From Leucoraja erinacea (Eukaryota): 64,000 nucleotides of DNA. Made by a program: the position numbers and the translations under genes. This document shows, piece after piece, positions 30,546-60,786 of the stretch. The DNA lies in assembly GCF_028641065.1 (NCBI RefSeq), contig NC_073408.1, positions 10,478,001 to 10,542,000 of the forward strand, given 5' to 3'. The notes beneath the pieces are model-generated. The model saw nothing but the letters and a program-made list of their open reading frames with translations. It was not told the DNA's origin and did not search any database. The first letter of the stretch is position 1. Each line of letters opens with the position of its first letter.

Positions 30546-30554
30546 TAACTCACT

Positions 30555-32831: not shown

Positions 32832-33522
32832 CTAGACTAAGTGGGACCCGTTGGGCTAGTTGCGCTAGTATGGGTGTTGCGGGCCGAAGGTACTGGTTTC
32901 CAGAGGGCTAGTATAGACATTATGAACCGAATGGATTCTTGGGCTGGCAGCCAACTGTTGCAACGATTTTAAAAGCAAAGCCAAGGCAAACAATTGGGCA
33001 GCAGCCACCCGACAACCAAAATTCATTTTGTGAACACAAACTTCTTAAAAAGATGAGGCAAACAATTGTGCAGCAGCCACCTAACAGCTGCATCGAGGGG
33101 ACTCACCGTGGAGTAGATGTGCGTTCAGTGTGATACGCAGCTCAGAGCCATGACCCTCTCGCTTCCTGGGTCTGGCAGACACTGAGTGAGGAACTACACT
33201 TTCGGCTTTCTCCAGCTTTTTTGTGTACCTTCGATTTTCCAGCATCTGCAGCTCCTTCTTAAACTACACTTCCGGGTTTTATAGTCCCTCCCCCCTGCGG
33301 CTAGCGGGGGCAGCAGAGAGAATGGGGATTTTTAAAAAAAACATTAATATCTCTCTGATTTTTCATCGATAGGAAAGATCCTATAAGATAGGAAGGCGGA
33401 TGGGGGCTCTGAGCGAGTTGGCCAAAAATGACGGCCGTTAGGTGGCGGCATTCTCTCGGAAATCACACCACAGCGAGCCAAAAACGGTCAAGATCAGACT
33501 TTTAGTAATATAAATATATAGA
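32832..33522 (-). mobile_element. Non-autonomous Helitron
   Basis: Minus strand reads A|TCTATATA...GCCCAACGGGTCCCACTTAGTCTAG|T: 5' TC, 3' CTAG, subterminal hairpin remnant, AT target, no TSD. Confidence 0.75.
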
Positions 33523-34169
33523 TATCAGCTTTCTCAGTGGTGTTTTGTGAATTCCAGAAGAGTGCATTTCCATTACTTAACCTGCTGTAATGTGGAAAAT
33601 GCCTGATCTTACAGTTGCTCATCACAAATAAGCTTCCAATGACCAAAACATAACCTTACTTTGGTTTGCTTTGTATTTAAGGAATGGAAATACATAATTA
33701 GGAGAAAATAGCTGCAATTTCTATCCAAGTTACTATTATTAATTATACCGTTTAAACCCAGCAGTTGCCTTCAGAAGGACAAATTCTTTGAAGCTTAAAT
33801 TTTCAAACTGGGGGTAGACAATTATATTTAAAAAAAGTTTTCATTCTATGCGTAGGTGATAAACTGTGGTTTTGTGGGATGGGGCTGGGCAGACTGGAGT
33901 TACTGAACCTCTACTCCAGACCAATGATTAGTATACAGTAGTCTATTAATATGAATCAATTCTTAAAATAAGGCTCCAGAGAAGGAAATGAAATGATTAC
34001 AACTCATGGTTAAGATGCTCTTGGAAGGCAGCAGCTCTACCGCTGCACCATTGTGCCACCTTGGAATTTTAATTTTAATCATTTGGCAAAATCTGCGGGT
34101 TATTCACTGAACATTCATGTCTTTATAGCAATAAGACCCAGCTCTCGGTGGGTCTCGGCAGTTGTACAT

Positions 34170-37100
34170 TCACTCATTGTTTTTCTCTATTTTATGTTGT
34201 CCTTCATTCGTCTTTTCACCTTGCTGGTTTGGTTGGGTTGAAACTCTGTTGTTGTCTCTGATTTCTCTTTCCTGCTGAAGGTATAGAAAAGTATGCAAGT
34301 TTTTCCAGTTAGAAAGCAGTGCCAAACTCTTTCCTCCCAGTCAGCATCTAAATTAGGCAATCCTGAACTAATTTACAGATCTTTTCTAGAAACGTTAATC
34401 TGTACGATTACTGTACTCCATCTACTTGCTTTAACAAGTGTCTGGTTTTTGGAAACATCAGGAGTTGTTTGCAAGATTTTCTACCATTACCAAGTAGTGA
34501 TTATTATTGCAAAACACAAAGTGCTGGAAAAACTCAACATGTCAGGCAGCATTTGCAGAGGGAGACAGACACAAAATGTTGGAGTAACTCAGCGGGACAG
34601 GCAGCATGTCTGGATAGAAGGAATGGGTGACATTTTGGTGAGAGACCCTGGAAGTTCCCATAACAGTTACTCACTTTGAAATAATTCATCCAGTGCAGAA
34701 GGCTTTGCAATGTCTTTAATGAAGATGGCAAGGTGCTATATTCGGTCTTATATTCTTTTATCGAGCTGCTTTAGAACCCTAAATCTCCATAATCTTTGGG
34801 AGTCATGACAGATATGCAGAGAATGGAGGGATATGGATCACGTGCAGGCTGTTGAGAATTGTTTACCTTTGTATTGTGTTCGGTACAGACATTAAAGGTT
34901 GTAGAGTCCTGTGCTATACTGTTCTATGACACTATTGTTAATCCTTGACATAAAACACATTAAATGGGTAAATATTACCTCTCCAGCAACAGTCAGAGAT
35001 TCTGTGTCTCTCAGTTTGACATTCAGTAAATCAGCAATTGCTTCTAAATGAACTTCTGGGCAGTCTTCATTTTGGAGTAGGTCAACATGTGTACGTAAAG
35101 TAGGGGAAACACAGAGTCGCAGAAAGAATGTTTCCTTGAAGATGCCTCTCAGTGCCTAGGATAATAACACAGTACGTTTGTAAATCTAATCTGTTGAGGG
35201 GCTGACCAAACTAAGTTTTAAGTCTGGCTGTAATGTAATTTTGTTGCCGTACCTGGTGGAAAAACGTGAGGTAGAGAGGATTGGAATCATCCCTCAGCTC
35301 ACCCGCAGCAATGTGAGCCAAACAGTGAACCAGGAGCAGGGAGAAGTCACCCACCGATGTCAGTTGTTGGCGTCGAATAAACAGCTCTTTCCGAGAATGC
35401 TGGAATACAGAAGTCTTGTTATAATGTCCCAAGCGATAAAACAGAATGGAAACAATTCTAGTCCTTATGCAATGAAAACAGAAGATGCTGGAAATATTGT
35501 TCTGAAGCTCGAATAGAGAGAGCAATGTTAAAAACAAAATGTTCATTATTCCGATACCAGAGGTTGAGGTTAGTCTAAGGTTGGAACCAAAGTACAGAAG
35601 GGACCTTTTCACAATGGGTGGTTGCTTCACTTTGCCACGTTATGGGATATGGATCATGAGTGGGCAGATGAGATTAGTTTATCTTAACATCATGTTTAGC
35701 CCAGACATTGTGGGCTGAAGGGTTGTTCCAGTGCTGTGCTGTTTTATGTTCTATGTAGTGAAGATACATTGATCTGGAAATTCCCTTTGCATGCCACTAC
35801 AATTTTCTGTGGGACACGAGTGAAGTTTATCTAAACCCAATTGCTGGATGCATTTGGGATCTTCATCTGATCAAACTTGTGGAAATTTGGTCTGTCTTCC
35901 CTCAGCATTTGAAGTGATAAGCTATGGGGGGTGATGCTGTTTGATCTGTTGGAGGCAACTTCAAGTTTGTTGTCTATATTGGGCTTGGTATCACCGTGCT
36001 CACTCTCATGTGCTATCATTGGATGGAGGTCACTTCGTCATCTCAAGGAAGTGGCTCCTTGAACAAATGACACATCAAGATGGTTCTTTTCATTAGGGCG
36101 CCATGGTTACCATTCATGTGGACTCGTGACATCATTGACCCCGAGAGGAGCTTGTGCCCATCTGGAGGCTGGTGTCTCTCTCAGTAGTCTGCATACTGAC
36201 CTTTAACAAAGTTAAGAATGGGATCCTTCAGCGCAGCAGCTCCATGCCGCTGGGCATTATTGACCCATTGAGGAACAGGCACAGGTATCGACCCTTCCTA
36301 AGAATGTACTGGACTGATGTTACATACTGTACCTGATAATAAAATGAATTCCGGAATTTATTGCGTGTATAATTGTTCATGGGCAAACTGGAGGCAAGAA
36401 GTAGGTTTATGTCTGGGGCCTGTGGAAAAATTACGAAATGTTACTCTTATGCCATAAAACATAAGTGACAGCTCGTTGTAAAGGGGCAAATGTAACATAT
36501 AATCTGGGCCTGCGATGAGTTTCTCTCCCATTATTATACTATTGGTTTCAATGAATAGCCTTATGTTTCAAATATCCAATGATGGCTTGGTCGCTGTCTG
36601 AAAAGAAACTTGTAAGATGTTCCATGTTTATGTAAGCATGTGGGTGTAAAAGTGTACATCTTTGGCTGTACTGTTGGTTTACATCTGAATGGAGAAACAT
36701 TTAAAATCAGAGCAGGGACAGTCCATTTGGCTCTTTGGGGCTGCTCCATTCTTTGAAGCAATCAGTATTCACTTCCCACTTTTTCTCCATATCCCTTGAT
36801 CTCTTTAACATTAAGAAATTTCATTGGGCGGCACAGTGGCACAGCGACAGAGTTACTGCCTCACAGCGCCAGGGTCCAAACCTGACTGCAGGTGCTGTCT
36901 GTGTGGAATTTGCATGTTCTTTGCATGGGATTTCTCCAGTTACTCTGGTTTCCTCCACTTTCTAAGGACATGCAGGTGTGTGTGTTACTTGCCCCTAGTG
37001 TGTACAACTTAAACTAGTGTATGGGTGATCGATGGTCGCCGTGGACCGAAGGGCCTATTTCCACACTGTCTCTAAACTAAATACTACTTCCTTCTAGAAT

Positions 37101-40100
37101 AAATGTAATCTTGGCTCCACAGGTTGTCCACTCTCTGGGTAAAGACATTTCTCCCGATCTTAGTTCTGATGGCCAAATCCCATTTCCTGAGGGAAATTTC
37201 AGTCATTAGGAATATCCCATTCCCACACTGACCTTTCTGTCCTGGACCTCCTCCATTTCACTTGGGTAGCTTACACCCCAGCGGTATGAACATTGACTTC
37301 TCTAACTTCAAATAGCCCTTGTTTTCCATCTCTCTCCATCCCCTCCCCCTCCCCAGTTCTCCCACCAGCCTTACTGTCTCCGACTACATTTTATCTCTGT
37401 ACCGCCCACTCCCCTGACATCAGTCTGAAGAAGGGTTTTGACCCGAAACGTCACCCATTCCTTCTCTCCATAGATGCTGCCTCTCCTGCTGAGTTACTCC
37501 AGCATTGTGTGTCTATCTTCAATTTAAACCAGCATCTGCAGTTCTTTCCTATGCATTAGGAATATCCTCCCTACAGCTAAGCTACCATGTCATGTCAGAA
37601 TTTAATGTGTCTATTAGATACTTGTCAACTCTAGTGAAGATAAGCCCAATCACCTAATCTTTCCTCATGTATTCATTCTGCCATTCTAGGAAGCAGACTA
37701 GCTCCCATCCAAGTCAAAAGATTGGCAAGTAATGTAAATACGCCTTTCAGTAGCTAATCTTCAAATATTTTCAACATCCTGGAGACATTATTAAATTCTC
37801 TCTTGGCTGTCTCCATTTTGCATAATAGTAAACATAAACAATGATGCAGGTATGCTGGGGGAAGTTAAAATGTTTCATGGCTTCAAGATCTTAAAAAAGA
37901 AAACATAGGGAAGAATAAAACTTGACTTCAGGAAAGAGAGAATGCAAGATTCCAATTCCAGGTTACCTCACAAATGTCATCACAGCTGCTGGAACTCACA
38001 TTGATTATTCTCTTCACAAGCTGTGCTATGAAGATCCCAAAACGATAGACATCTAGCTCACTCCCAGAAAGCTTCTCAATGCCCAGTGGCATCAGGTTTC
38101 CTTCACATGTGCACCCTGCATCCACAATGTCTGTGCATGGGCTGTCTGTTCCTGTAACAGAATGGTGCCTCTTTCAATCAATAGCAACTTCTGCAACAAT
38201 TTTGTCATAACAAGGTGTTTCAGAGATGAATTAGCAAACAAAATTTGGTAACTAACCACAAAATATGAATATTAGGGATATTAGGAATGATGGCCAAAAG
38301 TTTGAGCAGATTGTGAAAATGAAAGGTTTGTGCCTGTGTAGTGATTCCTATGTTGCAAATGCCTTGTCTTCACCAAAGCCCTTATGAAATTTCTTCCTTC
38401 ATTATTTGTAATGAAAGAAATGTGGCAGCCAAATAACTCTCACACACAAGGGTGCAAGGATCCAATGTATGAATATTTGATGAAGCGTACATGTTGGCCA
38501 GGCTACTGTGGATAATTCCACTATTCCTCTTAAAATGGTACCATGAGAGGTTTAATGCCCATGTGAAGTGATTATCAGATTAATATCTAATCTGAAAGTT
38601 AGCCCTCTGGCAGAATGGATAACTAGAATCTGCAGTTCCTTCCTACGCATTCCCTTCCGACATGAGCTGAGAGGCCGCCTAAAATTTTATATACAGGTTT
38701 CAGGAGCAGGAATTAACCCCAGAATATGTAGCTCAACCACAAGAGTGTTATCCATTGTGCCACTACAGGTTTTAAGGAGCACCTTTGAGGAAGGCAGAGT
38801 GATGGAAAGCTTTAGACTGGGAAATCATGAGCTCAGGGCCTTGGTCGACGAAGGCACAGGCACCACTAATGAAGTGCCTGAAATCACAGGTTCAGAGGAC
38901 TAAAACTGGAAGAGGAGCAATGTCTTAGAGGATTGAAGGATTGGACAAAATTGTACAATTGATGGGCCATGTAAACCCATGGAGGGATTTGAAAAGGTTG
39001 GAATGTCAAAGTTGGTTAAGCAATAATGGGATATGGTGATGGACAACCAAAAGGAGTGGAGCAGACAAGTGATTTCATCGGAAGTTGCCTCGGATTGATC
39101 AACAAGTCACTATACCTTGATAGTTGACTTTGGCTTCATCAGTTTCCTGTTGATCATCTTTATCTTGTGGAGCCACCCTGGCCTCTGGATTTGCTTTCAG
39201 GTGTTCATTGATTTCCGAAAGGAGTTTGAAGAGTGGGGACTGCAGAACCATCTTGATAGAGTCTTTCACTATAGGTATGAAAAAATTCAACATTCAGTGT
39301 TGAGTCTGAAGAAGTGTCCCAACCCAAAATGCCATCTGTCTATTCCCTCCGCAGATGCTGCCAGACTTGCTGAGTACTTTGAGTTTTACTCAGCAATCTA
39401 AGTTCAAGATATAGGAAGATGTTAAGTATGATCTTGCATTTACATCTTGCGTTCATCTTAAATAGAAGAGCAGGACCTGTACATCACTGGCACAACAAGT
39501 GCCATCTTGGCCATGGATGATGCTTACCCAAGGTAGCCCTGGGTCTTTGAAGGAACACTGGAACATTCAATGCAACAAAACCTGCCATTTGTTCAAAGGT
39601 TTTGGTGGCTGAGTAAAAGAGAGAATAATATAGTTTAATTATAGCATATCAAAATCATAAAATAGAAACATGTCTATCTATCAAGAAAAGACATAAAATG
39701 CTGAATTACTCCACATGTCTTTTCTTGATAGATAGACATAAAATGCTGGAGTAATTCAGCAGGCAGGCAGCATCTCTGGAGAGAAGGAATAGGTGACGTT
39801 TCAGGTCGAGACCCTTGATCAATCTGAAGAAGGGTCTCGACCCGAAACATCACCCAGTCCTTCTCTCCAGAGATGCTGCCTGTTCCGCTGAGTTAATCCA
39901 GCATTTTGTGTCTGCAGTTTAAACCAACATCTGCAGTTCCTTCCTACTCTTTTTTTTGTACCTTTTTATGATTTCATGTCATCCCTAAGCACAGAACATA
40001 GTGTTGCAGAATTATTCTGTTGCAGCGACAGAGAAAAAGCAGATCAAAAGAAGTGCACGTGCCTGAGAAGACAGAATTGGAGGAGAGCAGAGATCCCAGA

Positions 40101-43100
40101 GGGCCATTGAACTGAAGGAAGTTATGAGGGAAGGGATGAAGCCTGCAGTCCTTTCCAATGTGCAGCTTTGAGGGGTTGCTGGGCTGTGAGCAGACATTGT
40201 GCAGCTCGGACCTTACTCAAGCAGCAACTGGTGGGCTATTCAGAAACTGTCATCATAGATTCCCCAGAGAGCCAGCTTATTGACTTCAATGAAATCCCAG
40301 GAGGAAGACATTCTATTTGTGGTGCACATTTCTGACTGAATCACCCTCTTCATACCTTCGTTTAGAACCTGTTCGACTTGTTGCGAATGTCTAGCCTCTT
40401 CCTTCTGCTCTTCCGCTAATTTCTGCTCTGCAATTCTTCGTCGGCTGTCGGCTCTTTTCCCCTTTCTCCTCGCCTCCAGATCCTTCTCAATCTGTGCAAT
40501 CTCCTGCTGAAGACCCTTCTCCTGGAGCTGCAGCCTTTCACTATGCTCTTTAATAAGTTTCTGCAAGAAAGTAGTTGTTTTTTTAAACTTAACGAAGAAT
40601 GGCAAATCATTAACTCCTTTGGGAAATTTCCATTCACGAGTGGCAGTTTAAGAACAATCCTATTATGTGAAATGGAAGACCAAGAATAAGAAAATTTTGC
40701 TGAGATTGTATGAAACTTTGATCAGTCAAAATCTGGTCATAGACATAGAGTCTTACAGCGTGGAAACAGGTCCCTCGGCCCAACTTGTTCACACTGGCCA
40801 ACATGTCCCGTCTACACTAGTCCCACCTGCCTGTGTTTGGTCCACATCCCTCTAAACCTGTCCTAACCACTTATCTGTCCAAATGTTTCTTAATATCCAA
40901 AAGTATCTCAACTACCTCCTCCAGCAGCACGTTCCATACACCCACCACCTTCTGCGTGAAAATGTTACCTCTATTAAACCTGATGAATTATACACAGGTT
41001 TGGTCTCTATACCTCAGAGACAGTGAAACATCGATTCAACAATCAGATTCCTACGCTGGCAAGGATGTTCAATGATGAGTGACTGAATAGGACTGGCTAT
41101 GCCCACTGGAGCTGAGAAAAGTAAGAGGTGATCTCATTGATCTCATAAGACTGCAGTGACATTGTATCTATGAACACGAGAGTCTCCAATAAGGGAACAA
41201 AGTAAGAGATTCACCATTTAGAAATGGGAGCAAGATCATTTTCTTTTGAGAGGGACAAAAATCTTTAGGATTCTCTGTCAGAGACCTGCGGTCACACCAT
41301 TATTGAGCATTTTCAAGGTGCATTTTGGATGTCAAGAGTATTATAGGTTCTAGAAATCCGACTGGAAAATGGGGCAGAAATCCATGTCATTGTTTGGATG
41401 AACAGGGCTTGAAGTCTCATGTAACCTGTAATATTCTATAACAAAACAGAGAGCGCAGAACATAACAGAATGGGAGCAGGCCTTTTGGCCCAAAATGTCT
41501 GTGCCAAACATGATGCAAAGGTAATCTAATCTGCTCATGATCCATACTCCTCCATTCCCTGCATATCCACATGCCTATCTGAAAGCCTCTTAAACGCCAC
41601 CATCGTATATGTCTTCACCATTGCCCCGAGCAGCACGCCCCAGGCACCCTCCAACCTCTATGTAAAGAAAAACCACCCACTACAACTTTGGTCATTTTGC
41701 CTTAAACCTATCTAGATTATTATCAAGCCAAACACTTGAGTACTAAAAGAACAATGTATTAAGGGATTAGCCATATCATCATAGTATAGATGTATTTGTA
41801 ACAGTGCAGGATCATCATTTAAAAATGTTGTGAATTTATCATATTGACAGAACGTTACCTCTCTGAGTTGAAGTATCAGTTCCCCTCGTTCCAGTTGGTC
41901 TTGAAATTTGGTTTCTTCCTCCATCATCCTCAGGTTGTGCCGTTGCTTCTTCTTCAGAAGTTCGTGTGCGATGATCTCTTCAGCTATCTTGTCTTCCTTT
42001 GCTAGACTGGCTTCAAGTTCCTCAATCTACACAGTGATCAATCCACAGGGAAATGAAAAAAATATATAAACTGAAGATTTATACTGTGGGCAATTTCTCC
42101 ATTTTAGCTGCAGATTTTGTTTGATGATGGTCTGGGGAAAGATCTTGAGATGTTTTACTGTGTTAAATGTGTTCACACAACAGGACAGTGCAGGAACAGG
42201 CCATTCGGCCCACAATGTTGGTGCCAAACATGATTGAATGATTACTTTGTCACATGTGACGTCACAGTGAAATTCTGCATACCCAAGGAATGATAGCTGT
42301 ATGAATGTAGATTAAATGTAGAATGTAGATCAAATCAGGGTAGCACGAAAATCTGATATATTGCATTATCTGCAATGATCTGCAATATTAAATGCTCTTT
42401 TTGTAATAATCACAAACCTCTTCTTTTACAGCCATTTCTCTTATTTTTTGCTCCCGACATCTCTTCTCATTAATATTTTGCAGTTGCTCCTGTAGTTCCT
42501 TCATCCTTGCCTGTCGGAATGCCTTCAGTTCAGTCACCATGTGTTCAGCTTCTTCAACACACTGTATAACAGTAATAGATGATGACAGACTTGAAGCTTT
42601 GATCAAGTTAGAGTCACGCAGTGTGGGAACAAGCCCTTCAGACCAACTTGCCCTCGCCAACCACCATGCCCCATCTGCAATAGTCCCACCTGCCTGCATT
42701 TGGCTCATGTCTCTCTAAACCAATCTGATCCATGTTCCCCACATAGCAAAGGCCCATAATCAGTCTACCACCAAGTCTTTGTTTTAACAAATGATTATAT
42801 AAGATCATAAAATATTCGAGCCCATAAGTATGCTAGTCAGACTCTTGTACACTTGAATGTCACTGACACACAAGGATAGGGAAGTGAAATGACAGATGGA
42901 GTTTAAGCTGAGCAAGTGTGAGGTGTTGCACTTTGAGAGGTCAAATGTAAAGAGAAAGTATATGGTTAATGGCATGACCCTTAACAACATTGATGTGCAG
43001 AGGGATCTTGTAGTCCACAGCTCCCCAAAAGTGGCAATGTTCAAGGGAGAAGTGCAGTGCAAGTTTTTATTTTACATTGAGAGTGGTGGGTGCCTGGAAC

Positions 43101-46100
43101 GCGCTGCCAGGGGCAGTGGTTGAGGCAGATATGATGGTAGCATTTAAGAGGATTTTGGATTGGACAGGGAATGGAGAGATATGGATCACGTGCAGGCAGA
43201 GGAGATTATATTAACAGCACTATGTAGAGTCCGCAGGGCCTGTTTCTATGCTGTACGTTTTATCTTCTGTCTAAGGTGGTTTGGTTGAAATATTTTTCCG
43301 TCAAACTTGAAGTGTTAAATGTAAAGTTTCGTTAGCAAATTTCTCTAATTCCGGAAGAGATTGAGAAAATGCCGGAGTGCCGGTATATCAATAGATGACA
43401 CAGATATTTTCACATTACCAACCTTGTCAGAGGTGAATGGTTTTAAGCTATCAGCAAATTCCTGAAGCTTTTTCTCTCTTAGTTCCAGTAAGGCATTGAC
43501 AGATTTCAGGTCCATCAAAGCTAGATGTTGGCCTTCTGCTTGGTTGCGCAAGGGTTTTATGTTTGCGTCATCAACCTCTGCCAACCATTGCTGCAACACA
43601 AGTCAGAACGCATGCCATCATTCATTTGTTTTAACCACAGAGTTAGAGATTTGTAGAGCAAGGAAACATGTCCTCTGGCCCGCCACACCCAATACATTCT
43701 GAAATCAGCCAGGGGCCATTGTAAATGGCAGAGATAGGTTGTGGGGACCACAGGTGTGTATAACGTCAAGTTAATGGAGGTTAAAATGAGAAACGGTAAC
43801 TAGAAAAGCATGGGAATAGTCACGGCTAGAGAAAACATACTTGCAAAATTAAACAGCCATCTTGTCTTCTCTTCATCAGATCTTTTCATCATTCAGATCT
43901 TTGAATCTGAAATGACAGCTCTGTTTCTCTTCAATGGAAGCAGCTTTGCCTGTTGAGTATTTCCTGTTTTATTTGTATACACTAATAACATCTCTGGACA
44001 TCAAGAACGAGGAAGATGTACAAACCTCCACACAACAGTGCGATGCATCCCTGCATTCCTGCTGCTGCTTTTTTAGACTCTGATCCAGGAGAATGTACTG
44101 CCGCAGGTGGCGTAACAATTGGAAAAGGCAAACCACGGTTCCAATGTCACCTTTCCCATCTCCTGTCCTTGCTTGCCTGATCGCCTGTTCCTCCTGCAAT
44201 TGCAACTGAAAATGCCAGAGAAACAGAAGATCAAAGAACAGAATGGCTGATGCAACCCAACCCACAGCATGGCTTCACGATAACTCTCTATTCCTTCTCC
44301 CTCTGGTTATCTTGCTTAAGGTATTTACACTGCTTCAGTAGTCAGCTCCAGTAACGTGCAACGTTATGAGCAAAATAGGTTGCACCTCGTGCTACTTCAT
44401 TCTCTACCCTTCTCTCCCCCAGAGTGTTTTGAAAGCTTCACCGCATTGAATCTACTCTGATCTACTCTGATCAAGAAGGCTCATCAGCGTCTCTTCTTCC
44501 TGAGGAGACTGAAGAAGGTCCATCTGTCTCCTCAGATCCTGGTGAACTTCTACCGCTGCACCATCGAGAGCATCCTTACCAACTGCATCACAGTATGGTA
44601 TGGCAACTGCTCTGTCTCCGACCGGAAGGCATTGCAGAGGGTGGTGAAAATTGCCCAACGCATCACCGGTTCCTCACTCCCCTCCATCGAGTCTGTCCAA
44701 AGCAAGCGCTGTCTGCAGAGGGCGCTCAGCATCGCCAAGGACTGCTCTCACCCCAACCATGGACTGTTTACCCTCCTACCATCCGGGAGGCGCTACAGGT
44801 CTCTCCGTTGCCGAACCAGCAGGTCGAGGAACAGCTTCTTTCCGGCGGCTGTCACTCTACTCAACAACGTACCTCGGTGCCTTCCAATCACCCACCCCCC
44901 CCCCCCCCCGGACACTTATTATTATTTATTCAAATCGTTTGCTATGTCGCTCTTCCAGGGAGATGCTAAATGCATTTCGTTGTCTCTGTACTGTACACTG
45001 ACAATGACAATTAAAATTGAATCTGAATCTGAATCTGAACGAGGCAACCTGCACCAGTTCCACCAATTCCCCTCGTAACTCTGAAGGCACTATTTTGGAA
45101 AATTCATGGTCCCATTACTAAAGCTCAACATCAAAATATGTTGAGATACATTGAAAAGATACCTTGTTCATTCAATAATTCAGATCTCTTTCAAAATCGA
45201 AAATCCCAATAAGACAATATTCGACTGGGCAAGGAACTGGTCCGGAATTCCTCTTGATTTTTTTTTTGCAGCATCAGTAGAATCTTTTGTCGATTAACCC
45301 GAGTGCCATTTGCAATCACATTTCCTGAAACTATCATCAGGATTCTGAAGAAATTGGAGCCAGTTGTTTAAAACCTACATTTAACATTTAATGCTCATGA
45401 AGAATCACCTGTTCCTCTACAAGGTCCTGACGCTCCTTGTACTGTAGGGCAAGCTCTCTCTGCAGGTCCGCGTTGTGTTTGTTTGACTGCGCTGCGGAAT
45501 CCTCTCGACTTAATGTCTGCGTCATAGACACATCTTCATTTTCCTCCTACAGTTAGAACAAAACTCAATTATTAAACACTTGCCCATCTCACCTCACTGT
45601 TTGCTCCTGTACGCAGACAATATCTATGTTGATTTATAAAATGTTGGTAAGGCCATATGTGAGGTATTGTGTGCAGTTTGGGTCGCTACATTGCAGGAAG
45701 GATGTGAAGAGGGCGCAAGAGAAGTTTACCAGGACACTGTCTGGATTGGAGAATATTAGCTGTAAGTATAGATTTGACTAACCTTGGGTTATATTTTCTG
45801 GCACGTTGGAGGCCGAGCCTTAAAGAAGTTAATAAAATGATGTAACGCATGAACAGGGCAGACACCCAGAATCTTCACCCCCCCATGGAGGAAATATCAA
45901 AGACTGGAGAACAGGATGGATATGGATCATGGCAGAGGATATTATTTTAAGTTGGCATCATGTTCACCACATACATTGTGGGCCAAAGAGCCTGCACCCG
46001 TGCTGCACCGTTCTCTGCCTCTACTAAACGTGATTAAACATGATTTGTGGAGGGAGTGCATCTTTAGGTGAGGCTCGTTCTTACATGTGGATTTCCCACT

Positions 46101-49100
46101 GGCATTATCTGTTGGTTTCTCTCTTCTCGCTGCAGCCTGAGGAGATTTGAAAGTTTTCTTACATGTTCCTCCTGCAGATACCTCCCAACTGTAGATGCTG
46201 TTCGTTCACCCGAGGGACAGTCTTGTTTGCTGAGAGGTTTGCCATCAGCTTCATCTAAATTCTGCATCTGGGATTGAAGAGGACAACATGAAAGGCCAAC
46301 CACTCAGGATCAGACAGCGCGTCGTCCACAGAGCGCAGAGGGTTATTGGGACACAGCTACCAGCCTTGGAGGGCATCTACCACACACGGTGCCTTAGGAA
46401 GGCCATCAGCATCCATAAAGACTCCTCACACCCTTCTAAGGGACTGTTTGAACTATTTCCCTCCGGCAGACGTTACAAGGCCTTCTACGCCCGAACCTCC
46501 AGACTCAGAAACAGCTTCATTCCCAGAGCTATAGCGGCTCTGAACCGGCCCTGCTGAGTGCCCCCCATCCCCCCTGGACTCTCCCTCGGATGATCACGTC
46601 GCACAGTTTATTTATTTATTTTTTTACATTGGTTGGAAGCTGCATACCAAATCTCGTTGCACTGATGAGCAATGACAATAAAATATATTATTATTATTCT
46701 TATTATTCTTATAAAACAGGCCATTCGGCCCACACCATATCCACACAAACCAGCGTCCATCTATCTGTATTAGTCCCATCTAGCACTTGGCCCGTAAACC
46801 TTCTTTGCTTCAGTGCCTGTCCAAAGCCTTATTCTCAGTGCCTCTGCTTCCACCATTCTCGCAGGCAGTGCATTCCAGGTACTCACTACTCGGGTTATAA
46901 AAGATTCCCTTCTGATTGACTTCAAATATCTTACCCTTTAACCTAAATCCATGTCCTCTACTTTTATCTCTCTTTGATATGGGAAAAGATTTCCTGTAGT
47001 CTACAAGATTACAGGATAGATGTGTATTCCAGGTACTCGCCACTCTCTGGGTATAAAAGGTTCCCATCTGATACAGGAAGTGCTGTGAGCTTCTCTGGTC
47101 GAAGGCCAGGCAGGTTCTATTGGATGCCAGTTTTGGCTAATGGGAGCCCAGGCTCTGCTCTGCTTCTGAGAACATAAACGTCACTTTAAACAAGTTTAAA
47201 AAGTCTGAGAATTAGTTTTGAGCATTCACAGGGAAAAATATGAAGTAAACATAGGTCTGTGTGTGTGTAACTGTACCTGTAACCTACTGTAGATATCTAT
47301 TTTTGTATATACTCTGATGAGTTTCCTGATATCCTGCGTCACTAACATTGAGGCTTCCAGTGACAATTCGCAACTTTGTAGAGGCGGGAGTGAGTGATAC
47401 GTGAAGCAGGCCTCCTTGTCAACCAAATGTGCAACAGGGTTTTGCACACAGCTCTCGCTTGTCTCCAATGGTAGGGGAACCTTTAAAGGAGGTCAAAATA
47501 GGTTTTAAATCAGTGTTTACCTTAATATTTTTAATGATCTAATATTGTTTTACATTTTGTTTTAGGTAAATTATATATGTTAAATAAATAATCTTTATAA
47601 AAAAATGTTTTGAATGGTTAACTTGGACACAATCTGAGTTTTTCACAATTGGTCATTTGATTTGACCTGTTTGTGCTCAATCTTTCCATAGAATTTTTGG
47701 AAATCAGTGATCAACAGCTTCAATCCGCTAATTATGTCTTTCTCCATTTCTAGGATGTTTTTGGGCATCGCCAGTTTAGGGTCAAGCCCAACTTCCATTA
47801 GAGCCACAGCATGTTGGTCATGCAATGCCTGCACTGATTTTCGACGTTGTTCCATCAAATCCATCAGCAGTTTCTCCATCCGGTCAGATTTTCCACTATC
47901 CTCTTCCTCCTGCAACTAATCGAACAGCAAAAAAACTTCTTTCAATGCTTTGCACAAATATCAGCATGCATATTATTTATAGCTGGGATGTAACTCGCTG
48001 TACTACACACAAACCAGCTCTCTTCCCCCCCCCCCCCCCCCCCCCCCCCCCCCACCCATCAACTCTATCTACATTTCACACTACTTTGGAAAAGCCACTA
48101 ACTTAATTAAGAACCACTTTCACCCCCGTCAGTTTCTCTGCTCAGCTTTCTCATCAGGCAGAAGATACAGAAGCTTGAAAGGCCGTAACACCAGATTCAG
48201 GAATAACATCTTCCTTACTGAACAGACCTCTCCAACGTAATGCTCTAGTCCTGATATTCCAACCTACCACATTATGGACCATGCACTTTTTTTTTCATTT
48301 GCACTTTCTCTGTAACTGTAACACTGTAATGTTCTAACACTATAATTTGCACTCTGGTGTTCTTCTCTTTGCTCTAACTGTTGTACTTGTGCATGTTTTG
48401 GTTGTACGCATGTATCGTATGGTATGAATGGATAGCAGACAAACTTTTTCACTCTTTCTCGGTACACATGACAATAATAAACCAATAAATAAATGAACAA
48501 ATTAATATCGTTATCCACCATCCTGCAGGTTTCTGCGCCTTGCGATGGGCACGATTAGCATACCCTGTCCATTTAAATGCTCCCCATCATTGCTGGGATC
48601 TTGTGTTCTAGGCCCCCAATTCTTCAGTGAGAGAATTTTTTTGAATTCATCAAGAAAATAAACTTCCTGTGTGTGGTCTGCGTGTGTCTGGTGCTCTCTA
48701 TCACTCACATACCTCTTCTAGCACCTGGCAAATTTTCTTCACTTCATCTGATATCAAGGTGATCTCCAACTGGACTGCCTCGGATGCATGCTTCTCAATG
48801 TGAAATCTTACAATGCCGCCGGGATTAAAAGGAACAAAAATAGAAAAAATATCATTTAAAATGAAAGGAATGGCGCCAAGAAGTGGGGATAGTTGCTACT
48901 TAATCTCACTGATATGTAACTGGAAGAGATGTCAGATTACGAAGAGGGGTCCAACTGTGACCAACAAGGAGTTCCGGGATAGATGCTGGAGTAACTCAGC
49001 GGGACAGGCAGCATCTCTGGAGAGAAGGAATGGGTGACATTTCGGGTTGAAACCCTTCTTCGGACAGGGCATTTCCAAGTCTTTGACTCCATGGCAAAAG

Positions 49101-52100
49101 TCCAAATGCAAATTGGAGGAATAACAACTCATATTTTGCTTGGACATTGTACAACCCAATGGTATGAATATTTATTTCTCGAATTTCAAGTAACCCTTGC
49201 AAACCCTCTCTCTCCACCCCTCCCCCAGCCTAGTCATCATACTAGCTTCACTGTCATTCTGTTGCGTTTCACTGTCTGTTTAACTCGTTATCACATAACC
49301 CACAGCCAACAATAGACCATTGTGGGCTCAACCTTTTTTTGATCGGCATTACTTTTTGCACATCTTTCATTTATTTGTTCTATATCTCTCTCTATATGAC
49401 CATCTATAGCTCTCGTTTCCCTTTCCCCTGACTCTGCCTGAAAAGGGTCTCGACCCAAAACGTCACCTGTTCCTTTTCTCCAAAGATGCTGCCTGACCTG
49501 TTGAATTACTCCAGCTTTTTGTGCCTATCTTCATTGTAAAACATAGTTTGCCTTTGTTAGCAACACCCAAGGTTGATTCCAATAGGATTTGATTAGATCG
49601 TTCTGGTGCTGATGTTAGATGGGTTTTCAACACACTTTAGCCCCCTTTCCCACAAATGAAAAGATCTTTAGGTCCACAAAAAACATACCCCAGCATACCA
49701 CAGTGGCACAGCGAGAAGAACAGCTGCCTTAGAGCTTGAGTGAAACAGGTTCATTCCTGCGGTGCTGCCTGTGTGGAGTTAGCACCTTCATTCTGCGTTC
49801 CTCCAAAATGCTCCAGTTTCCTCCCACAGCCCAAAGACATGTGGGTACGTACACCAGCGATCGGCCGCTGCAAATTGCTGGTGTGTAGATGAGCAGTGAA
49901 ATCTATGGAAAGTTTATTGAAATGTGCTGGGAATAAAATGTGATTTGTGTAACTTAACTCTATGGGAAAGTGGGTGGGTGGGGGTAAAATTGGATTAGTG
50001 TAAATGGGTATGTGATGGTTGGCATGGACGCGATGGGCCGAAGGGCCTGTGTCCACGTTGTATGACTCTGTGACATCAGTGGTTCACCACAAAATGCCCC
50101 TCTTTCCTCCAATTTCATGAATCAAAGTACTAGTCCACTGCATTCTCATTTCTATCTTAATGCTCACTCCCTCCAAAAATGGTGGGGAATTTATGGAGTC
50201 CAAAATTCTTCCCTTGGAGTCTCCTTTTTAAAAATTCTATCAGGCTGCTCCTGTGAAGAATGCCCACCTGATTAGCGCTTGCCTCTCTGCAAGCACGTCA
50301 TCATGTATCGGAGATGATCCAGAGGCCGGTGTTTCAGGAGCCGCAGCGAGGAATCTCACAGGAGCTTCGGGAAGCTCTGGATATGGTAGCAGCCCAGCTT
50401 GTGAGCTACCACCGACAACAGGACCTGTTTAAAATAAAATATTGCGCATTTTAAAGCAGAATAAACCTTTTTTAAGGTGTCAACAAAATAGAAGGAAGGA
50501 CTTGCTACATTGTATTAGCTCATTGAGCATTGTTCATTGCTTTGAATAGCTGGGAGTCGCTCAGCGGTACAGGGAGCTGTGCTATGATCAGGGTTCGATC
50601 CTGGCCTCTGGTATTGTCTGCAAGTTGTAGAACTACATTCTCCCATGTGCTCTGGTTGTCTCCCACATCCCAAAGTTAAGCAGGTTGGCAGGTTAATTTG
50701 AGATATAAAATGCCATGAAGCAGGATGTGTTCACCTTTTTTGCAGCTTAAAACAACGTTTTCTCACTCCATTTTAATACGTTTCAGAAACTATATATACA
50801 GTAACTGTTGTCAAGCACTGCATTTTTAAGGCAGCATTTCCTGGATTGGGAATGTCAGGGACTGGAATAGGAGCGGCAGCACAGGCACTGGGATGGAAAG
50901 GGATGACATTTTTGGCCGTCATTGAAGGAATGAAGTGGACCATAGCTTGTTGTGGTATTGTTGGAGTTTGACTTTGCGCTCCACAAACACACTCACTTAC
51001 TAAACACCTGTACCGATAACCCTCGTTATAATTTCTTATCATTTCTTGTAGCTCTTTCCGCAACTAAAAATGTATTTTTGTTACTGCAAGCTAAAAATAC
51101 TAAAGGCTGTTACACAGTTTAATAATTATTGAACAAGTGATGACTGAAGCAATTTCAATGGCCTACAACACTGTAAACCGCAGCTTGCGTTCTTAAAGAG
51201 ATAGTGCTGTCTGATTACTATGGGGTCGCTCCTCCTGCTGTAGTTTAGTTCAGAGATACAGGACTGAAACAGGCCCTTCGGCCCACCGAGTCTGTACCGA
51301 ACAGCGATCCTCACACATAAACACAATCCCACACACAGGTGAAGAGGTGAGTATCAATGGAAACTGAAATGTCCAACCTTTGTTTGATACAGAAGGAAGA
51401 GTGGCTGGAGAATGAATAATGTTTCTGTCAGTCTTCAAAAGGTTTATTAGTTGCTTAATAAGAGGGAGCATGGTCCTGATGGTTGAATCTGGTGAGCCAT
51501 GAAAGAGGTTGGTGTGCTGGCTCTTGGTTAACTGGTAATCACCAAAATGATAGACATCTCCAGACAGAAGACCCTGAAATGGAAAGTTCCACAAGGTGAG
51601 GGGTGGGGATGATAAAGGCTATAGGATCACAACACTCTTTATTCTAGCCCTCTGTATTGCAATAGATGTTCCCCAATCTGCCTGGGTAGTTACCTTGGCT
51701 TCCAGGACATATAGTTCTGCCAGATCTCTCAGATGTCCCAGTCTGATGTACACCATGTCAAGGCCAGTCCAGTGGATTATTATGTTTTCCTGAAACTCTT
51801 GAATCAGCAAGGTTTTCAACTGTAAGTAAATGAGAATGACCGGTCAGTTGTGCACTCAGGATGGGGCTTCCATGGGAATAACGAGCGTCTGTGTGAGATT
51901 CAAACAATATCTTCTATTCGGATTGTTACTCAAGCCTGCCATCAAAACAGAGACACAAAAGACTTTAGATGCTGGAATCTTGCTCAAAAAACAAAGTGCT
52001 GGAGAAACTCAATGGGCCAGGCAGCATTGGTTGAGGGAAATGGACATACGGCAATGTTTTGGGTCGAGACCCTTCTTCAGGCTGATGCAGTAATGGGGAG

Positions 52101-55100: not shown

Positions 55101-58100
55101 ATCAAATAAGATCAAATAGAACAAGTTGTCCTACAACTTTATGTGCACACCATACGCAAGAAGAAGTTGATGAGCATTATTGAATCTCAACCGAAGCCCA
55201 CATTGTCTGCGTCGCACATTATACCAAGTTTAAACTAATCTTCTCTGCCTGCATATCCCTCCATCAACCTGCATATCCATGTGCCTATCCAAAAGCCTCT
55301 TAAATGTCACTATCATATCTGCCTCCACCACCATCCCTGGCAATGTGTTCCAAGCACCTACAACCCTCTGTATAAAAATCTTGCCCCACACATCTCCTTT
55401 AAATGTTGCCCTTCTCACCTTAAAGCTATGCCCTCGAGTGTTTGACATTCCACCCTGGGAATAAAGTTATGACTGTCTACCCTATCAGTTCCTCTCATAA
55501 TTTTATAAATTTCCATCCGGTCTGCTCCCCCACCTCCCAGCCTCCAATGTTCCAGAGAAAACAATCCAAGTTAGTCCAACTTCTCCTTAATACCTTCTAA
55601 TCTAGGCAGTGTTCTGGTAAATGGTTGCTGAATTACAACAGTAAGTTTATTACTGGGTGTACTAAAAAAACCATTCGCTAACAAACAATGATATTGTTTC
55701 TTGCCTTGGGTGAAGAACAAGAACAAGTTTGATGGTCAAGCACAAGAAACCCTTTAAATAATTAAGAGAAACCGAAATCAGAACAGTTGCAGTACACATG
55801 GTGCCCTCACCTGAAGGTACTTCAGTGGTGAGGCTTCTTCTGCCTGCTGGAAGGCAGCGTCCTGTGCCTGCTGCTGTTGACCTCTCTTTCGAGCCTCGTC
55901 TTGACTCATCTTTTCAGCAAACTGTGCCACCTTTTCAACTATCGCCCGAGCTGTGGCTACGAATAACATCTGCTGCTCCACCTCCTCCTTGTCCACTGTA
56001 CGGTGAAGAAGACAGGAGAGCATGCCACAACAACACTGGCAGGTAACGGGTAGAGCCAAACAGAAATGCAAAACACCGCAGCACCCTTGCCTTGTTTCAG
56101 AGATGGCGTGGGGAGATTCATTCTCTCCCTATATGAGCATAAGGAATAGGAGTAAGATTAGGCCATTTGGCCCATCACGTCTACTCCGCCATTCAATCAT
56201 GGCTGATCTATCTCTCCCTCCGAATCCCATTCACCTGCCTTCTCCCCATAACCTCCGACACCCGGACTAATCAAAAATCTATCGCCCTCTGACTAAATAA
56301 ATTTCTTCTCATCTCCTTGCTAAATGAACGCCCTTTAATTCTGTGGCTATGACCTCTTGTCCTAGACTCTCCCACTAGTGGAAATATCTTCTCCCCATCC
56401 ACTCTATCCAAGCCTTTCACTATTCTGCATGTTTCAATGAGGTCCCCCCTCATTCTTCTAAACTCCAGCCTAACTAATTATATGCTTTAATTTCAGGTCA
56501 TCCAGGTAAGATTGTTTCATATTTGTATCAGAATGCTTCAATCCATAATAACTGGAAATTTCATTCAGTTCTCTTAATTTTTAAGAAAGTTATGGGCTTT
56601 TGATCACATCTATGCTTTTGAGTTAAGTCAATGGAAAAGCAATTGGGAACAAGATGCTAATTTCCGAGTATGAAAATGGCCATAACTTTTTTAATACTGG
56701 AGATATTAAAGTGAATTAGGTGTCAAAAATAAACTTATTTTTATGCTTTATCTGATGGGATAAATTGCAGACTTGGATTTTTTAAATCTCAAAATTTTGT
56801 AACTTTGCTAAATATTGTACCGAGAAGCTACGCAGAATGTGGACTGTATTTACACTTCCTGATGTCTTGCTATTCTCTTCCATAACATAAAACAGAGAAC
56901 ATAAGTGGACTAATAGCATCAGAGGTCTCGTATGAACAGAAAATATAGAAGGGAAAAGAGAAATAAAAATCCAGTGTCTTGGGGTACCTGAATGGTTAAA
57001 ACGCATCAATGTTTGGGAAACAGAGAACGAGTTAGTTGTAAGTTGCATTTGGACATAGGGTTACCTTGTGATACCAAAACAATCGCATCAGCTGGCATCA
57101 GGGATGACAAATGTGATCCGTCTATGTCCCTGCGTTGTGCTTCATTCTGGGCACAGACGTGTAAAAGGGTGATTACTTCACCAAGAGCTCTCACCTCATC
57201 CTCAACCTGAAGACAATCAAGTAGAAGGATTCAGTACCTGCTGCATGGAACATCATCTACAAAACCCGAGGCAGGAGCGTGACCAATATTACCAGACTGA
57301 AGCTTGTGTCAAACGCTCAAGAGTTACAGTGTAGAAATTGAACTAATCTTACAGAATCATAACGGAATAACAATGAAATTAAATAAGTGAAGTGAAAGGG
57401 CTAATGCAAAATCTTATTAATCCAATGAAAAAAAATCCTTGTTAAATAAGGAAACTAAAGCTGTTGATAAGCTAAAGATTGTCTACATTTTTCTGATATG
57501 GATTTTAACTTCTGTATAATCGTTCAAAACCAGAGGGGTCAGGGAGAGATTGTTCTGCTGTGATAATTGTATGGAATAATTGGATTCCAAAAAGCCTCAA
57601 GCATTCTCAGAACAGTCTGAACAGATATGAACCCNNNNNNNNNNNNNNNNNNNNNNNNNNNNNNNNNNNNNNNNNNNNNNNNNNNNNNNNNNNNNNNNNN
57701 NNNNNNNNNNNNNNNNNNNNNNNNNNNNNNNNNNNNNNNNNNNNNNNNNNNNNNNNNNNNNNNNNNNNNNNNNNNNNNNNNNNNNNNGTATGATTCATAA
57801 ATTTACGATTATTAACTCGAGCATAAACTAAATATATTGATTCAATCATGATGCTGTACCTGGTCAAATCTGCAGTCGGGTTCGGTGTCAGAGACCTTCC
57901 GCAGTAAAACTTTTAAAGCATTAAATAGAGTTTCTTCCTTCTGTTGCTGATGCTGCCAATGTTCACGTCTACACTGGAGTTCTTCCTTCAGGGCATTGAG
58001 CTGAGTGGATACACACAGATGTAACGTCACCTGGGAGCACTGAACCATCACAGAACTTCAACAGTGACTATTTTCAGCACCATAACACGTCCCTTTGAAC

Positions 58101-60786
58101 TGAAGCTGAACCCAGCCAGTGTGTTTGAAGTGCACCCTTGCTATATCTACAGGGCATGAATGAACTCTCGTTTCCAGTTACAACTACTGATATCAATGAG
58201 GTTGCAGGATGGAAAACATGGCAAAGGAAAAAATATTACTCTGGTGCAGTAGGAGGTTTACGTCGCATGGGTGAGATTGGTACATGTGTCAGAGCAGAGG
58301 CAATTTCATTACCTCATTCTCTCCTTCCCTATAACTAAAATATATTTTAACTCAAACGTACCCATAAATTCCAATTGATTTTGCGTCATTAACCTGCACT
58401 AAGGGATAACTCGGAGTGGTGAATCAACTTATGGGGTCTTCGTTATGAAGAGGGGGTGAAACCAATGTGGAAGAATTTACAACTTCCTTCCAGACAAAAC
58501 CTGAAGTCAGGATTGATTTAACCTTTCATGTGGTGCTGTAAGGCGACAACAAAAAAACACAGCACAGTGGCGTGGCTGACCGAATGCGCCTCACAGTGCC
58601 AGAAACCCAGGTTCGATCCTGACTTCGGGTGCTGTCTGCATGGAGTTTGCACGCTCTCCTTGTGACCATGTGGGTTTCTACAGAGTGCTCCGGATTTCTC
58701 CCACATCGCAAAGACATGCAGGTTTGTGGGTTAATTGGTTTCTGCAAATCTCCCCTCGTGTGTAAAGAGAAAGTGGAATAACATAGAACAGGTGATTGAT
58801 GGTCGGAGTGAACCTGGTGGGCCGAAGGGCATCTTTCTATGTTGTATCTTTCAATCAATGAATCAAATGCTGTATCACTCTACCATCCCATACAAATTCA
58901 AGGACAGAGACATCAGCTGAATTACGTCACTCATCATCGCAAAGGTTTATGTGACATCTGACCTGATTGGTACTGGCACATAAAAATCTAAAGAGGGAAA
59001 GGCTTTGTTCATTCAAAATTGACAGAGAAAAGATGCAAAAAACCTAGCGACACTTCAGAGAAGATTTACTTGAATGGGACGAGGATTTTAGCTGTAAGGT
59101 TAGGTCGTGGCTATAATCCTGAGCAAAGTTGCTTGAGGAAGATTTTAAAGGATGATGGCAGTTTTAGACAAGGGAAGCAAAAGAAAGGTCTTCCCATTAA
59201 TTGATGGCACGTGGACAAGAAACACAGATATTCTCAGCAAGTGGTAAAGGAGGGATGTGAGGAACATTTTCTCCACAGTGAGTGATAACAATGTAGATGC
59301 CAATGTGATGTGATCAGAGATGATCAACGATTTGCGGCACAATGGCACAGTGGGAGAGTTGCTGCCTTACAGCGCCAGAGACCCAGGTTCGATCCTGACT
59401 ATGGGTGCTGTCTGTACGGAGTTTGTACGTTCTCCCTGTGACCATGTGGGTTTTCTCCGAGTGCTCCGGTTTCATCCCACACTCCAAAGATGTACAGATT
59501 TGTAGATTAATTGGCTTTGGTAAAAATTGTAAATTGTCCCTAGTGTGTAGGATAGTGCTAATTTATGGTCGCTGATTGGCGCAGACTCAGTGGGCCGAAA
59601 TACCCATTTCACCACTGTACCTCTAAAGTCTAAAGGCTAAAGTAAAGATTTCAACGGGAAATTGGATTGGCACCTGAGAGAAATAAACTTGCAGGGAGAT
59701 TGGGATAGAGTGAGGAAATGGGTTTGAATGGATCGTTCTATAGAGAATTGCTATGAGTGAGATGAGCTGGACGGAATATTTTGTAAGCATGTAACCATTT
59801 TACAACTCTATGAATTTCATATGCAAGTGGATATTAGCTCTTCAAGTAATAAAGCTAGTGATTGTCACCTTATCACCAGGAACACACCAGTATGTAACAG
59901 GCAATCGATATATCAAATACCTACACATGCATAGTTGATTCGACTGCCACTGGAATTGCCTGGGTGTACAATCACATTGCTTATATAAGAAATGATTTGT
60001 CTAAACATGAATGGCCGAGTAGGTTGAAAGTCACAATGGCATTTCCCACTGCATTACCATTTCCCCATTCAGCCTTCGTTTCATGCAACCTCCTGATGAC
60101 TGTAGGACAGGCACCACGATTCCTGTCTGTGGATCTCTGCGGGCTCCTACAACTGGGCCAGTTTCACCGGTGATGGGGTCAAAGCTTCTGGCACCAAGAG
60201 CAATCGGTATCAGTCCTAGAAAAGGTGAGAGGGGAAAAGATTTAATAGGAACCTGAGGGGCAACATTTTCACACAGAGGTTGGTGGGTAAATGGGATGAG
60301 TTTCCGGTGGAAGTAGTTGAGGCAGATGCAATGAAGAATGATGAATGAATGATACTCTATTATCACACGTGACATGTCACAGTAAAATTATTTGTTTTGC
60401 ATGCCATACACAAAGTATGCAAAGAGTCACCACGTATAGGGCACCTAACAATCTTTAAAAGGTTGGACAGGTACATGGATAGGAAAATTTGAAAGGGATG
60501 CAGGTAAATGATATTAGCTTAGGTGAGACATCTTTGTCAGCATGGGTGAGCTAGGTAACCATGTTGGAAAGCCATGACTCTCTGTTAGGTTTTAATGAGT
60601 TTAAGCATTAAATACCTTTTCCATCAGGATCCTCCATGGTCCCAGCAAGGGGGATGAGTCGGCCAGTAGCTGGATTGGATTCCACCCCTAAAATTGGCAC
60701 TTGCAGGCCAGAGCCTCCAGGGTCAGGAATCTGCATCCCTACAACGGCAGGGATTAGTAAACCTGTGCCGGCAAATGGGATCATCC
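34170..60786 (-). CDS. Large uncharacterised multi-exon protein (DP.TG-repeat region, long coiled coil, globular C-terminal domain); 5' end not resolved
   Basis: Phase-consistent GT-AG exons: 60616-60786, 60058-60215, 57860-58000, 57065-57206, 55811-55995, 51694-51819, 51378-51573, 50268-50424, 48713-48806, 47667-47915, 47277-47480, 46085-46267, 45409-45546, 44026-44205, 43423-43590, 42418-42561, 41859-42026, 40356-40560, 39116-39268, 38000-38151, 36333-36419, 35253-35399 and 34979-35155 (3725 nt, open). Probable last exon 34170-34271/34274 (CAGCAG acceptor, TGA at 34170-34172). Confidence 0.85.
34979..38151 (-). CDS. Unnamed gene: C-terminal globular domain exons (38000-38151, 36333-36419, 35253-35399, 34979-35155)
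   Basis: CEGNLMPLGIEKLSGSELDVYRFGIFIAQLV | APDINLLLASSLPMNNYTRNKFRNSFYYQ | HSRKELFIRRQQLTSVGDFSLLLVHCLAHIAAGELRDDSNPLYLTFFHQ | ALRGIFKETFFLR. Confidence 0.88.
36827..37082 (+). mobile_element. tRNA-derived SINE (HE1/V-SINE-like)
   Basis: GGCGGCACAGTGGC..AGCG A-box-like head, GTGCTGTCTGTGTGGA.TTTGCA core, CR1-like tail GAAGGGCCT.TTTCC...CTAAACTAAA. Confidence 0.75.
37230..37550 (+). mobile_element. Penelope-like element 3' end with terminal repeat
   Basis: ...LGSLHPSGMNIDFSNFK* followed by CTGAAGAAGGGTTTTGACCCGAAACGTC terminal repeat. Confidence 0.75.
39116..47915 (-). CDS. Unnamed gene: coiled-coil exon block (10 exons, mostly phase 0)
   Basis: E/K/Q/L-rich helical peptides, e.g. KLIKEHSERLQLQEKGLQQEIAQIEKDLEARR and ELKAFRQARMKELQEQLQNINEKR; canonical splice sites. 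Confidence 0.85.
44455..45038 (+). mobile_element. Rex1/Babar-clade LINE 3' fragment
   Basis: KKAHQRLFFLRRLKK...FYRCTIESILTNCITVWYGNC...HPNHGLFTLLPSGRRYRSLR; (GAATCT)n tail. Confidence 0.9.
46313..46705 (+). mobile_element. Rex1/Babar-clade LINE 3' fragment
   Basis: QRVVHRAQRVIG...SHP..GLFELFPSGRRYK...RLRNSFIPRAI; (TAT)n tail. Confidence 0.8.
53464..54503. mobile_element. Non-autonomous TIR DNA transposon (hAT-like?) nested in a CR1 tail
   Basis: Direct repeat CAATAGT at 53457-53463 and 54504-54510 (extendable to TACAATAGT); imperfect TIRs TAGCAACGTTACAAA / TTTGCAACATACCTA; host CR1 sequence resumes on both sides. Confidence 0.75.
56137..56469 (-). mobile_element. CR1-clade LINE 3' fragment
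   Basis: RGDLIETCRIVKGLDRVD.EK.FPLVGESRTRGH. Confidence 0.8.
56470..56810. mobile_element. Partial, inverted second copy of the 53464 element's left end
   Basis: Reverse complement of ~53464-53810, ending TTTTGTAACTTTGCTA. Confidence 0.8.
57635..57787. other. Assembly gap (153 N)
   Basis: Run of N within an intron. Confidence 1.
58560..58860 (+). mobile_element. tRNA-derived SINE (HE1/V-SINE-like)
   Basis: B-box GGTTCGATCC at ~58610, conserved core and CR1-like tail. Confidence 0.8.
59335..59640 (+). mobile_element. tRNA-derived SINE (HE1/V-SINE-like)
   Basis: A-box-like TGGCACAGTGG, B-box GGTTCGATCC, core GTGCTGTCTGTACGGAGTTTG. Related copies at ~4590-4850(-), 5675-6060(+), 14970-15240(-), 49700-50070(+), 60915-61230(+) and 63050-63380(-). 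Confidence 0.85.
60058..60786 (-). CDS. Unnamed gene: two exons of Gly/Pro-rich DP.TG repeats (60616-60786, 60058-60215)
   Basis: GMIPFAGTGLLIPAVVGMQIPDPGGSGLQVPILGVESNPATGRLIPLAGTMEDPDGK|GLIPIALGARSFDPITGETGPVVGARRDPQTGIVVPVLQS; phase-1 junction fits. Confidence 0.88.

Follow-up and report, generated by a model that had tools for sequence, protein, structure and literature searches.

We analysed a 64,000-nt stretch of the Leucoraja erinacea genome (contig NC_073408.1, positions 10,478,001 to 10,542,000 of the forward strand; hereafter the window), which carries a large multi-exon gene on its minus strand at 34170..60786, as the original prediction had placed it. The identity of the locus is near certain: it is the 3' part of the orthologue of fish si:dkey-103g5.4 and mouse Gm32742. 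The C-terminal domain of the encoded protein is likely a zincin fold that lacks the catalytic Glu. For the protein as a whole, we lean towards a single-pass membrane, receptor-like tether, whose zincin-fold tip would bind zinc without cutting, possibly at a cilium or flagellum.

A first exon chain was built from stop-to-stop frames and splice sites. It contained 24 exons (3830 nt) with AG at every acceptor, GT at every donor and a single terminal stop; without its 105-nt terminal exon it equals the 23 exons (3725 nt) that had originally been joined in an unbroken frame. An extra exon (39608-39528, 81 nt, ag/GTAAGC, phase 1-1), also missed originally, was revealed by the RefSeq model of the gene and a long-form relative. 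With it, the final model comprises 25 exons (3911 nt, 1302 codons), and its stop lies at 34172-34170. All 24 tested exons matched a homologue from another species in a local collection of ~250 proteins (best E ≤ 1.3e-6); identity was 37% for exon 16 and 54-86% for the other 23. The pyrimidine share at acceptors was 0.68 in the model versus 0.46 at 1811 other AGs (p = 7e-11), and the donor score was 3.9 versus 1.8 at 1358 other GTs (p = 6e-14). Because the sites were picked by eye with the consensus known, there is some circularity in both p-values. The gene is real and intact, and chance, previously called very unlikely, is ruled out. No upstream exon was matched in 60800-64000, indicating that the 5' end of the gene lies beyond the window.

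The last 472 residues are identical to RefSeq XP_055516680 (LOC129712352, Leucoraja erinacea), with the same junctions and stop; that model is partial and covers exons 16-25 only. A search with exon 1 returned 21 proteins from 78 candidates, spanning sharks, rays, sturgeons, teleosts, coelacanth, lungfish, lizards and turtles, and four of them were named si:dkey-103g5.4. With the warthog member as query, 61 proteins were obtained, of which 44 were named mammals (rodents, bats, carnivores, ruminants, camel, armadillo), including 'Predicted gene 32742' of rodents (mouse Gm32742) and rat RGD1562811. A tree of the C-terminal domain grouped the window with Narcine and Chiloscyllium (support 96), inside a 40-row clade (Shimodaira-Hasegawa-like approximate likelihood ratio test, 99) whose named rows were all jawed vertebrates. 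This tree was a quick IQ-TREE search on one domain, with 94 rows covering the domain and most mammals and short fragments excluded. The position of the window inside the jawed-vertebrate clade makes the skate gene an orthologue, and the proposal that the family was possibly lost in mammals fails. The gene had been called unnamed; it is indeed uncharacterised, but databases carry si:dkey-103g5.4, and part of the skate gene is LOC129712352. No named human gene appeared among the matches found, and the gene is not C2CD2L, both as originally stated.

Among the 61 warthog-query matches (7,997 candidates sharing most words were scored), there was no human or ape protein. The primate members (P0231 and P0229) were a truncated 685-residue Saimiri isoform and a partial Macaca model, both fragmentary-looking, and in the latter Arg replaces the first His of the C-terminal motif. 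Loss or decay of the gene in primates is thus possible; if true, this would be one of the uncommon cases in which a gene of such age has disappeared from the human lineage.

The C-terminal domain of the skate protein contains the motif HCxxH, with Cys where the zincin motif HExxH has Glu. The catalytic Glu was found in none of 218 homologues, the position being held by Cys, Ala, Thr, Ser or Gly. The first His was kept in 210 of 218, the second in 216 of 218, and an Asp nine residues past the second His in 213 of 213; near-invariant Ala, Pro, Asn, Ser and Gly residues lie around the cleft. The Asp may well be the third metal ligand. Nearest to the domain in the Atlas were unnamed bacterial and phage clusters (0.93-0.94), which are a lead only, and a DUF3684 cluster was a weak lead (0.87). 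The original prediction had not recognized the predicted zincin character of this compact domain. The Glu would have been lost before the split of discobans and opisthokonts with the likely metal ligands kept, which is unusual for pseudo-proteases, whose ligands often decay.

The same conserved residues could be read as those of an active, Glu-independent metal hydrolase (a YbeY-like nuclease, or an amidase or isopeptidase), in which case the protein would be a receptor that carries an enzyme inside the cell. YbeY, a small soluble RNA-processing protein, is active with an HxxxH motif that lacks Glu, and YbeY-family proteins held ranks 3, 9 and 13 in the fold list. However, the Glu position tolerates any small residue, the third ligand looks like Asp rather than the His of YbeY, and the first His is gone in eight of the 218 proteins, several of them mammalian. 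We consider an active enzyme unlikely; the domain probably binds without catalysis.

Searching with a profile of this domain yielded 670 cluster representatives (E ≤ 0.001), of which 150 were listed; 30 proteins were looked up by name, many being unnamed. The named deep members were from the protists Fabomonas (7499 aa), Chromosphaera (7076 and 6410 aa), Diphylleia, Cryptobia, Rhabdomonas, Percolomonas (4786 aa) and Lapot, and the invertebrate members were echinoderm, hemichordate, amphioxus, annelid, mollusc and brachiopod proteins. Giant relatives thus occur in fishes, invertebrates and protists, which bears out the view of an ancient uncharacterised family. From the N-terminus on, full-length relatives have a hydrophobic stretch (in most), 43-159 Cys-rich CxxGxYC repeats, a conserved juxtamembrane beta domain of 110 residues and one strong hydrophobic helix. 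This predicted single membrane span, absent from the original prediction, is followed by 1,100-2,800 residues, arranged as a coiled coil, two blocks of DPxTG hairpin repeats, a second coiled coil and the C-terminal domain. Vertebrate members have few Cys repeats and an ectodomain of ~470 residues. One type carries the DPxTG repeats (vertebrates, Lingula, Fabomonas, Diphylleia, one Chromosphaera gene), and the other is without them (echinoderms, the other Chromosphaera gene, proteins of ~4700 residues). The skate counterpart of the relatives' Cys-rich ectodomain and membrane helix would lie 5' of the window; we infer a type I topology, in which the window-encoded part would be cytoplasmic.

The juxtamembrane domain may resemble cupredoxins; its 24-sequence profile had no PDB match at E ≤ 10 and no cupredoxin row in Pfam. 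Ten vertebrate homologues gave nothing above the Pfam cutoff, and a phmmer search of the Mauremys protein against PDB gave 0 matches at E ≤ 1. In the Atlas, the ectodomain was nearest to unnamed animal clusters (0.86), again a lead only. The gene si:ch211-286b4.4 may be a giant paralogue. It is reported to be testis-enriched (10.1101/650218); neither point was used as evidence.

The Cys-rich repeats of the relatives match Ephrin_rec_like / GCC2-GCC3, which they share with the apicomplexan cysteine repeat modular proteins (CRMPs). Loss of CRMPs is reported to block rhoptry secretion (10.1101/2022.02.24.481622), and the skate family might likewise use its Cys repeats as a surface sensor and so set off the docking or exocytosis of secretory organelles (e.g. 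acrosome, extrusomes) instead of being a ciliary tether. We regard this as improbable, since such a repeat occurs in many unrelated proteins and the skate family has one membrane helix followed by a long tail, whereas CRMPs are reported to have nine (10.1101/2022.02.24.481622).

Within the window, the order of Gly/Pro-rich DPxTG repeats, a coiled-coil-like middle and a compact alpha/beta domain was confirmed as originally described; only the second repeat block (block B) is encoded here. A model of both Mobula blocks (58 sequences) reached a predicted local distance difference test score of 87.8 and a predicted template modelling score of 0.80. It shows numerous short strands and, separating the two blocks, a long helical hairpin; a helix follows. 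Foldseek found no match to it at E ≤ 0.001 in PDB or viral models, in lists dominated by the helical hairpin, so that the beta part was barely tested; the VIA rows also cover mainly this hairpin. Rows for adenovirus fibre were dropped (prob ≤ 0.04). The repeat module may be a new fold.

Exons 8-19 encode residues 373-1030; the block starts and ends in phase 1 and can therefore be skipped in frame. The distance from the repeats to the C-terminal domain is 800-944 residues in skate and nine named genera (lungfish, frog, lizards, turtles, alligator, birds). It does not exceed 280 in any of the 39 named mammalian models scored, all of them without exons 8-19, and all 7 named ray-finned fishes fall at 259-406. 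Short distances were also measured in six further models (three chondrichthyans, Mauremys, a snake and a bird). From these lengths, the block was likely lost in mammals and ray-finned fishes; among sharks, rays and turtles, long and short forms occur side by side, which points to alternative splicing or to differences in annotation.

We propose that the Cys-rich rod would contact a ligand or matrix outside the cell, and that the cytoplasmic coiled coil would act as a spacer, made longer or shorter by the presence or absence of the in-frame exon 8-19 block. Partners would be bound both by the repeat module and by the disarmed zincin; the His, His and Asp would still hold zinc, and the open cleft could grip a peptide without hydrolysing it. 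The ciliary setting is the weakest step, to which we give slightly less than even chances. It is hinted at by the seven named protists, which have flagellated cells, and by a rodent gene model fused to HOATZ (HOATZ-like PF17664). In its fullest form the proposal is tentative and rather doubtful: a receptor family as old as eukaryotes, with a rod of up to ~160 units, would cross the ciliary or flagellar membrane once and use hairpin repeats, in a fold with no solved relative, and a tunable coiled coil to present a zinc-holding Glu-less zincin (a client trap or new chemistry), from flagellates to mouse, while decaying in primates.

Several results weigh against the tether. The zincin call had no support from any sequence-profile library, and scans of the C-terminal domain with Pfam, PDB sequences, PADLOC and PHROG gave weak or coiled-coil rows only. 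The ciliary hints are thin, and co-occurrence with cilia was checked only through the named matches, a small and biased sample that held no land-plant or fungal name. The architecture and fold evidence would suit equally well a general protein of cell-surface adhesion or scaffolding that ends in a pseudo-peptidase and has nothing to do with cilia; of the ciliary hints, one comes from a single fused gene model. The retention of the family in free-living flagellates of distant supergroups, together with the missing plant and fungal names in that small sample, argues against this, and we rate it as unlikely, about on a par with the enzyme or slightly below it.

The RNA data may also count on the negative side. 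In four of 12 raw-read RNA runs compared with 33500-43700 (tissues and species coded), exon-only bins had a depth of 0-0.9 and reads piled on repeats; no exon junction was among the 15 of 1174 joints listed. One run (X15) showed traces in the direction expected of minus-strand RNA. In addition, the skate protein is ~60 residues shorter at its C-terminus than five shark/ray-type models, and the missing tail was not found in 30400-34300. The near-zero depth and the absent tail would suit a decaying pseudogene. However, the 1302 codons are open across 25 exons with intact splice sites, the motif and the identity to homologues in 23 of 24 tested exons are preserved, and the RefSeq model shares junctions and stop; we hold decay of the skate copy to be very improbable. 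Past the stop, a short interspersed repeat begins after ~110 nt (34170-33990 region), and ATTAAA occurs at 34079 and 34073.

Table 1. Exons of the skate gene in the window, with percentage identity to homologues.
Feature	Position	Strand	Description
Exon 1 in window	60616..60786	-	Phase 1-1; beta-hairpin repeat block B; 80% to Mobula/Chiloscyllium homologues
Exon 2	60058..60215	-	Repeat block B end; 73-75%
Exon 3	57860..58000	-	Helical / coiled-coil segment; 69%
Exon 4	57065..57206	-	Helical segment; 66%
Exon 5	55811..55995	-	Helical segment; 67%
Exon 6	51694..51819	-	Helical segment; 79%
Exon 7	51378..51573	-	Ends phase 1; spliced straight to exon 20 in short-form models; 70%
Exon 8	50268..50424	-	Pro-rich linker; opens skippable block 8-19; 59%, Mobula only
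Exon 9	48713..48806	-	Coiled-coil block; 74%
Exon 10	47667..47915	-	Coiled-coil block; 71%
Exon 11	47277..47480	-	Coiled-coil block; 60%
Exon 12	46085..46267	-	Coiled-coil block; 57%
Exon 13	45409..45546	-	Coiled-coil block; 59%
Exon 14	44026..44205	-	Coiled-coil block; 68%
Exon 15	43423..43590	-	Coiled-coil block; 62%
Exon 16	42418..42561	-	Coiled-coil block; XP_055516680 match starts here; 37% to lungfish
Exon 17	41859..42026	-	Coiled-coil block; 61%
Exon 18	40356..40560	-	Coiled-coil block; 66%
Exon 19	39528..39608	-	81 nt; closes skippable block
Exon 20	39116..39268	-	Helix into C-terminal domain; 62%
Exon 21	38000..38151	-	Predicted zincin fold begins; 64-67%
Exon 22	36333..36419	-	Predicted zincin fold, beta strands; 86%
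Exon 23	35253..35399	-	Active-site-like helix: His 35327-35325, Cys (Glu position) 35324-35322, His 35315-35313, invariant Asp 35288-35286
Exon 24	34979..35155	-	C-terminal helices; 54%
Exon 25, coding part	34170..34274	-	TGA stop; ~60 residues shorter than five shark/ray-type models

Intron 3 holds a 153-N assembly gap (57634-57786); the frame joins across it, and alignments to relatives show no exon lost. Intron 7 contains a Pro-rich open frame of 96 codons (51063-50776, minus strand), at a place where coelacanth and lungfish carry extra linker. It is protein-like, but it was rejected as an exon because neither a fitting donor nor a homologue was found. The segment 47165-47030 was judged to be a repeat remnant.

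A DPAGT1-like gene on the same strand starts ~3.8 kb downstream (open reading frame 30617-30210), which agrees with the position upstream of DPAGT1 given originally. The DPAGT1-like exons (30365-17700, minus strand) include near-identical exon-like stretches at 22387-22097 and 18750-18520, each adjoined by a GC-rich palindromic repeat element of ~700 nt (22450-23160, 18810-19580). The pair may stem from an internal duplication or be an artefact of the assembly. Past DPAGT1 there are HINFP-like zinc-finger exons (8293-1431, minus strand) in the same orientation, and a C2CD2L-like frame was not noticed between them, unlike the human gene order. Rodent and bird orthologue models (P0213, P0224) are fused with neighbours, one HOATZ-like (PF17664) and the other bearing ankyrin repeats and the source label 'OCA domain', which hints that the amniote gene lies near the HOATZ and POU2AF genes rather than DPAGT1.

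A literature search for the name 'dkey-103g5.4' gave no match. Gm32742 is mentioned once, in a table of PMC10531624, and RGD1562811 once, in PMC5068731. By gene name or topic, no account of the family was found, with subscription journals and supplements outside the search. The gene itself is already in databases as a nameless, often fragmented model whose cytoplasmic part has no Pfam domain; what is new is that the domain is assigned as a pseudo-zincin, that the receptor-like architecture is pan-eukaryotic, that a block of exons can be skipped and that the gene seems to be decaying in primates. The handles gained are a predicted fold, a candidate site of His, His and Asp (35327-35286), and the genes mouse Gm32742 and fish si:dkey-103g5.4.

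The closest known proteins are si:dkey-103g5.4, Gm32742 and RGD1562811, placeholder names with no function attached. They are 29-69% identical to the skate protein over long stretches and have the DPxTG repeats, helical region and C-terminal domain in identical order; the mammalian and ray-finned models are without the exon 8-19 block that skate carries, whereas skate is without the terminal ~60 residues. Wss1/WLM, SPRTN (SprT) and the minigluzincins (abylysin, selecase, jannalysin) have 6-14% identity to the skate-family domain. Unlike them, the skate family is without the catalytic Glu (218 of 218), likely uses Asp and not His as third ligand, and carries the domain at the end of a membrane protein. 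YbeY (UPF0054) shares the predicted zincin fold but has His where the skate family has Asp after the motif; there was no sequence match, and its Pfam family was absent among the rows listed in one scan of 8 members and another of 75 (in the latter, 25 of 52 weak families were listed). Tiamat / NO VEIN / DUF3684 proteins are large and multidomain, and they include a domain of Wss1-like fold that has no HExxH; in Tiamat the metal ligands are reported to be absent or too far apart (10.64898/2026.09.30.754977). In contrast, the ligands of the skate family are near-invariant, and ATPase and nuclease domains are absent. CRMP/PCRMP proteins have a long Ephrin_rec_like / GCC2-GCC3 ectodomain, as in the relatives of the skate gene; neither DPxTG repeats nor a zincin-fold tail is reported for them (10.1101/2022.02.24.481622), the two features that the skate gene encodes or is predicted to encode.
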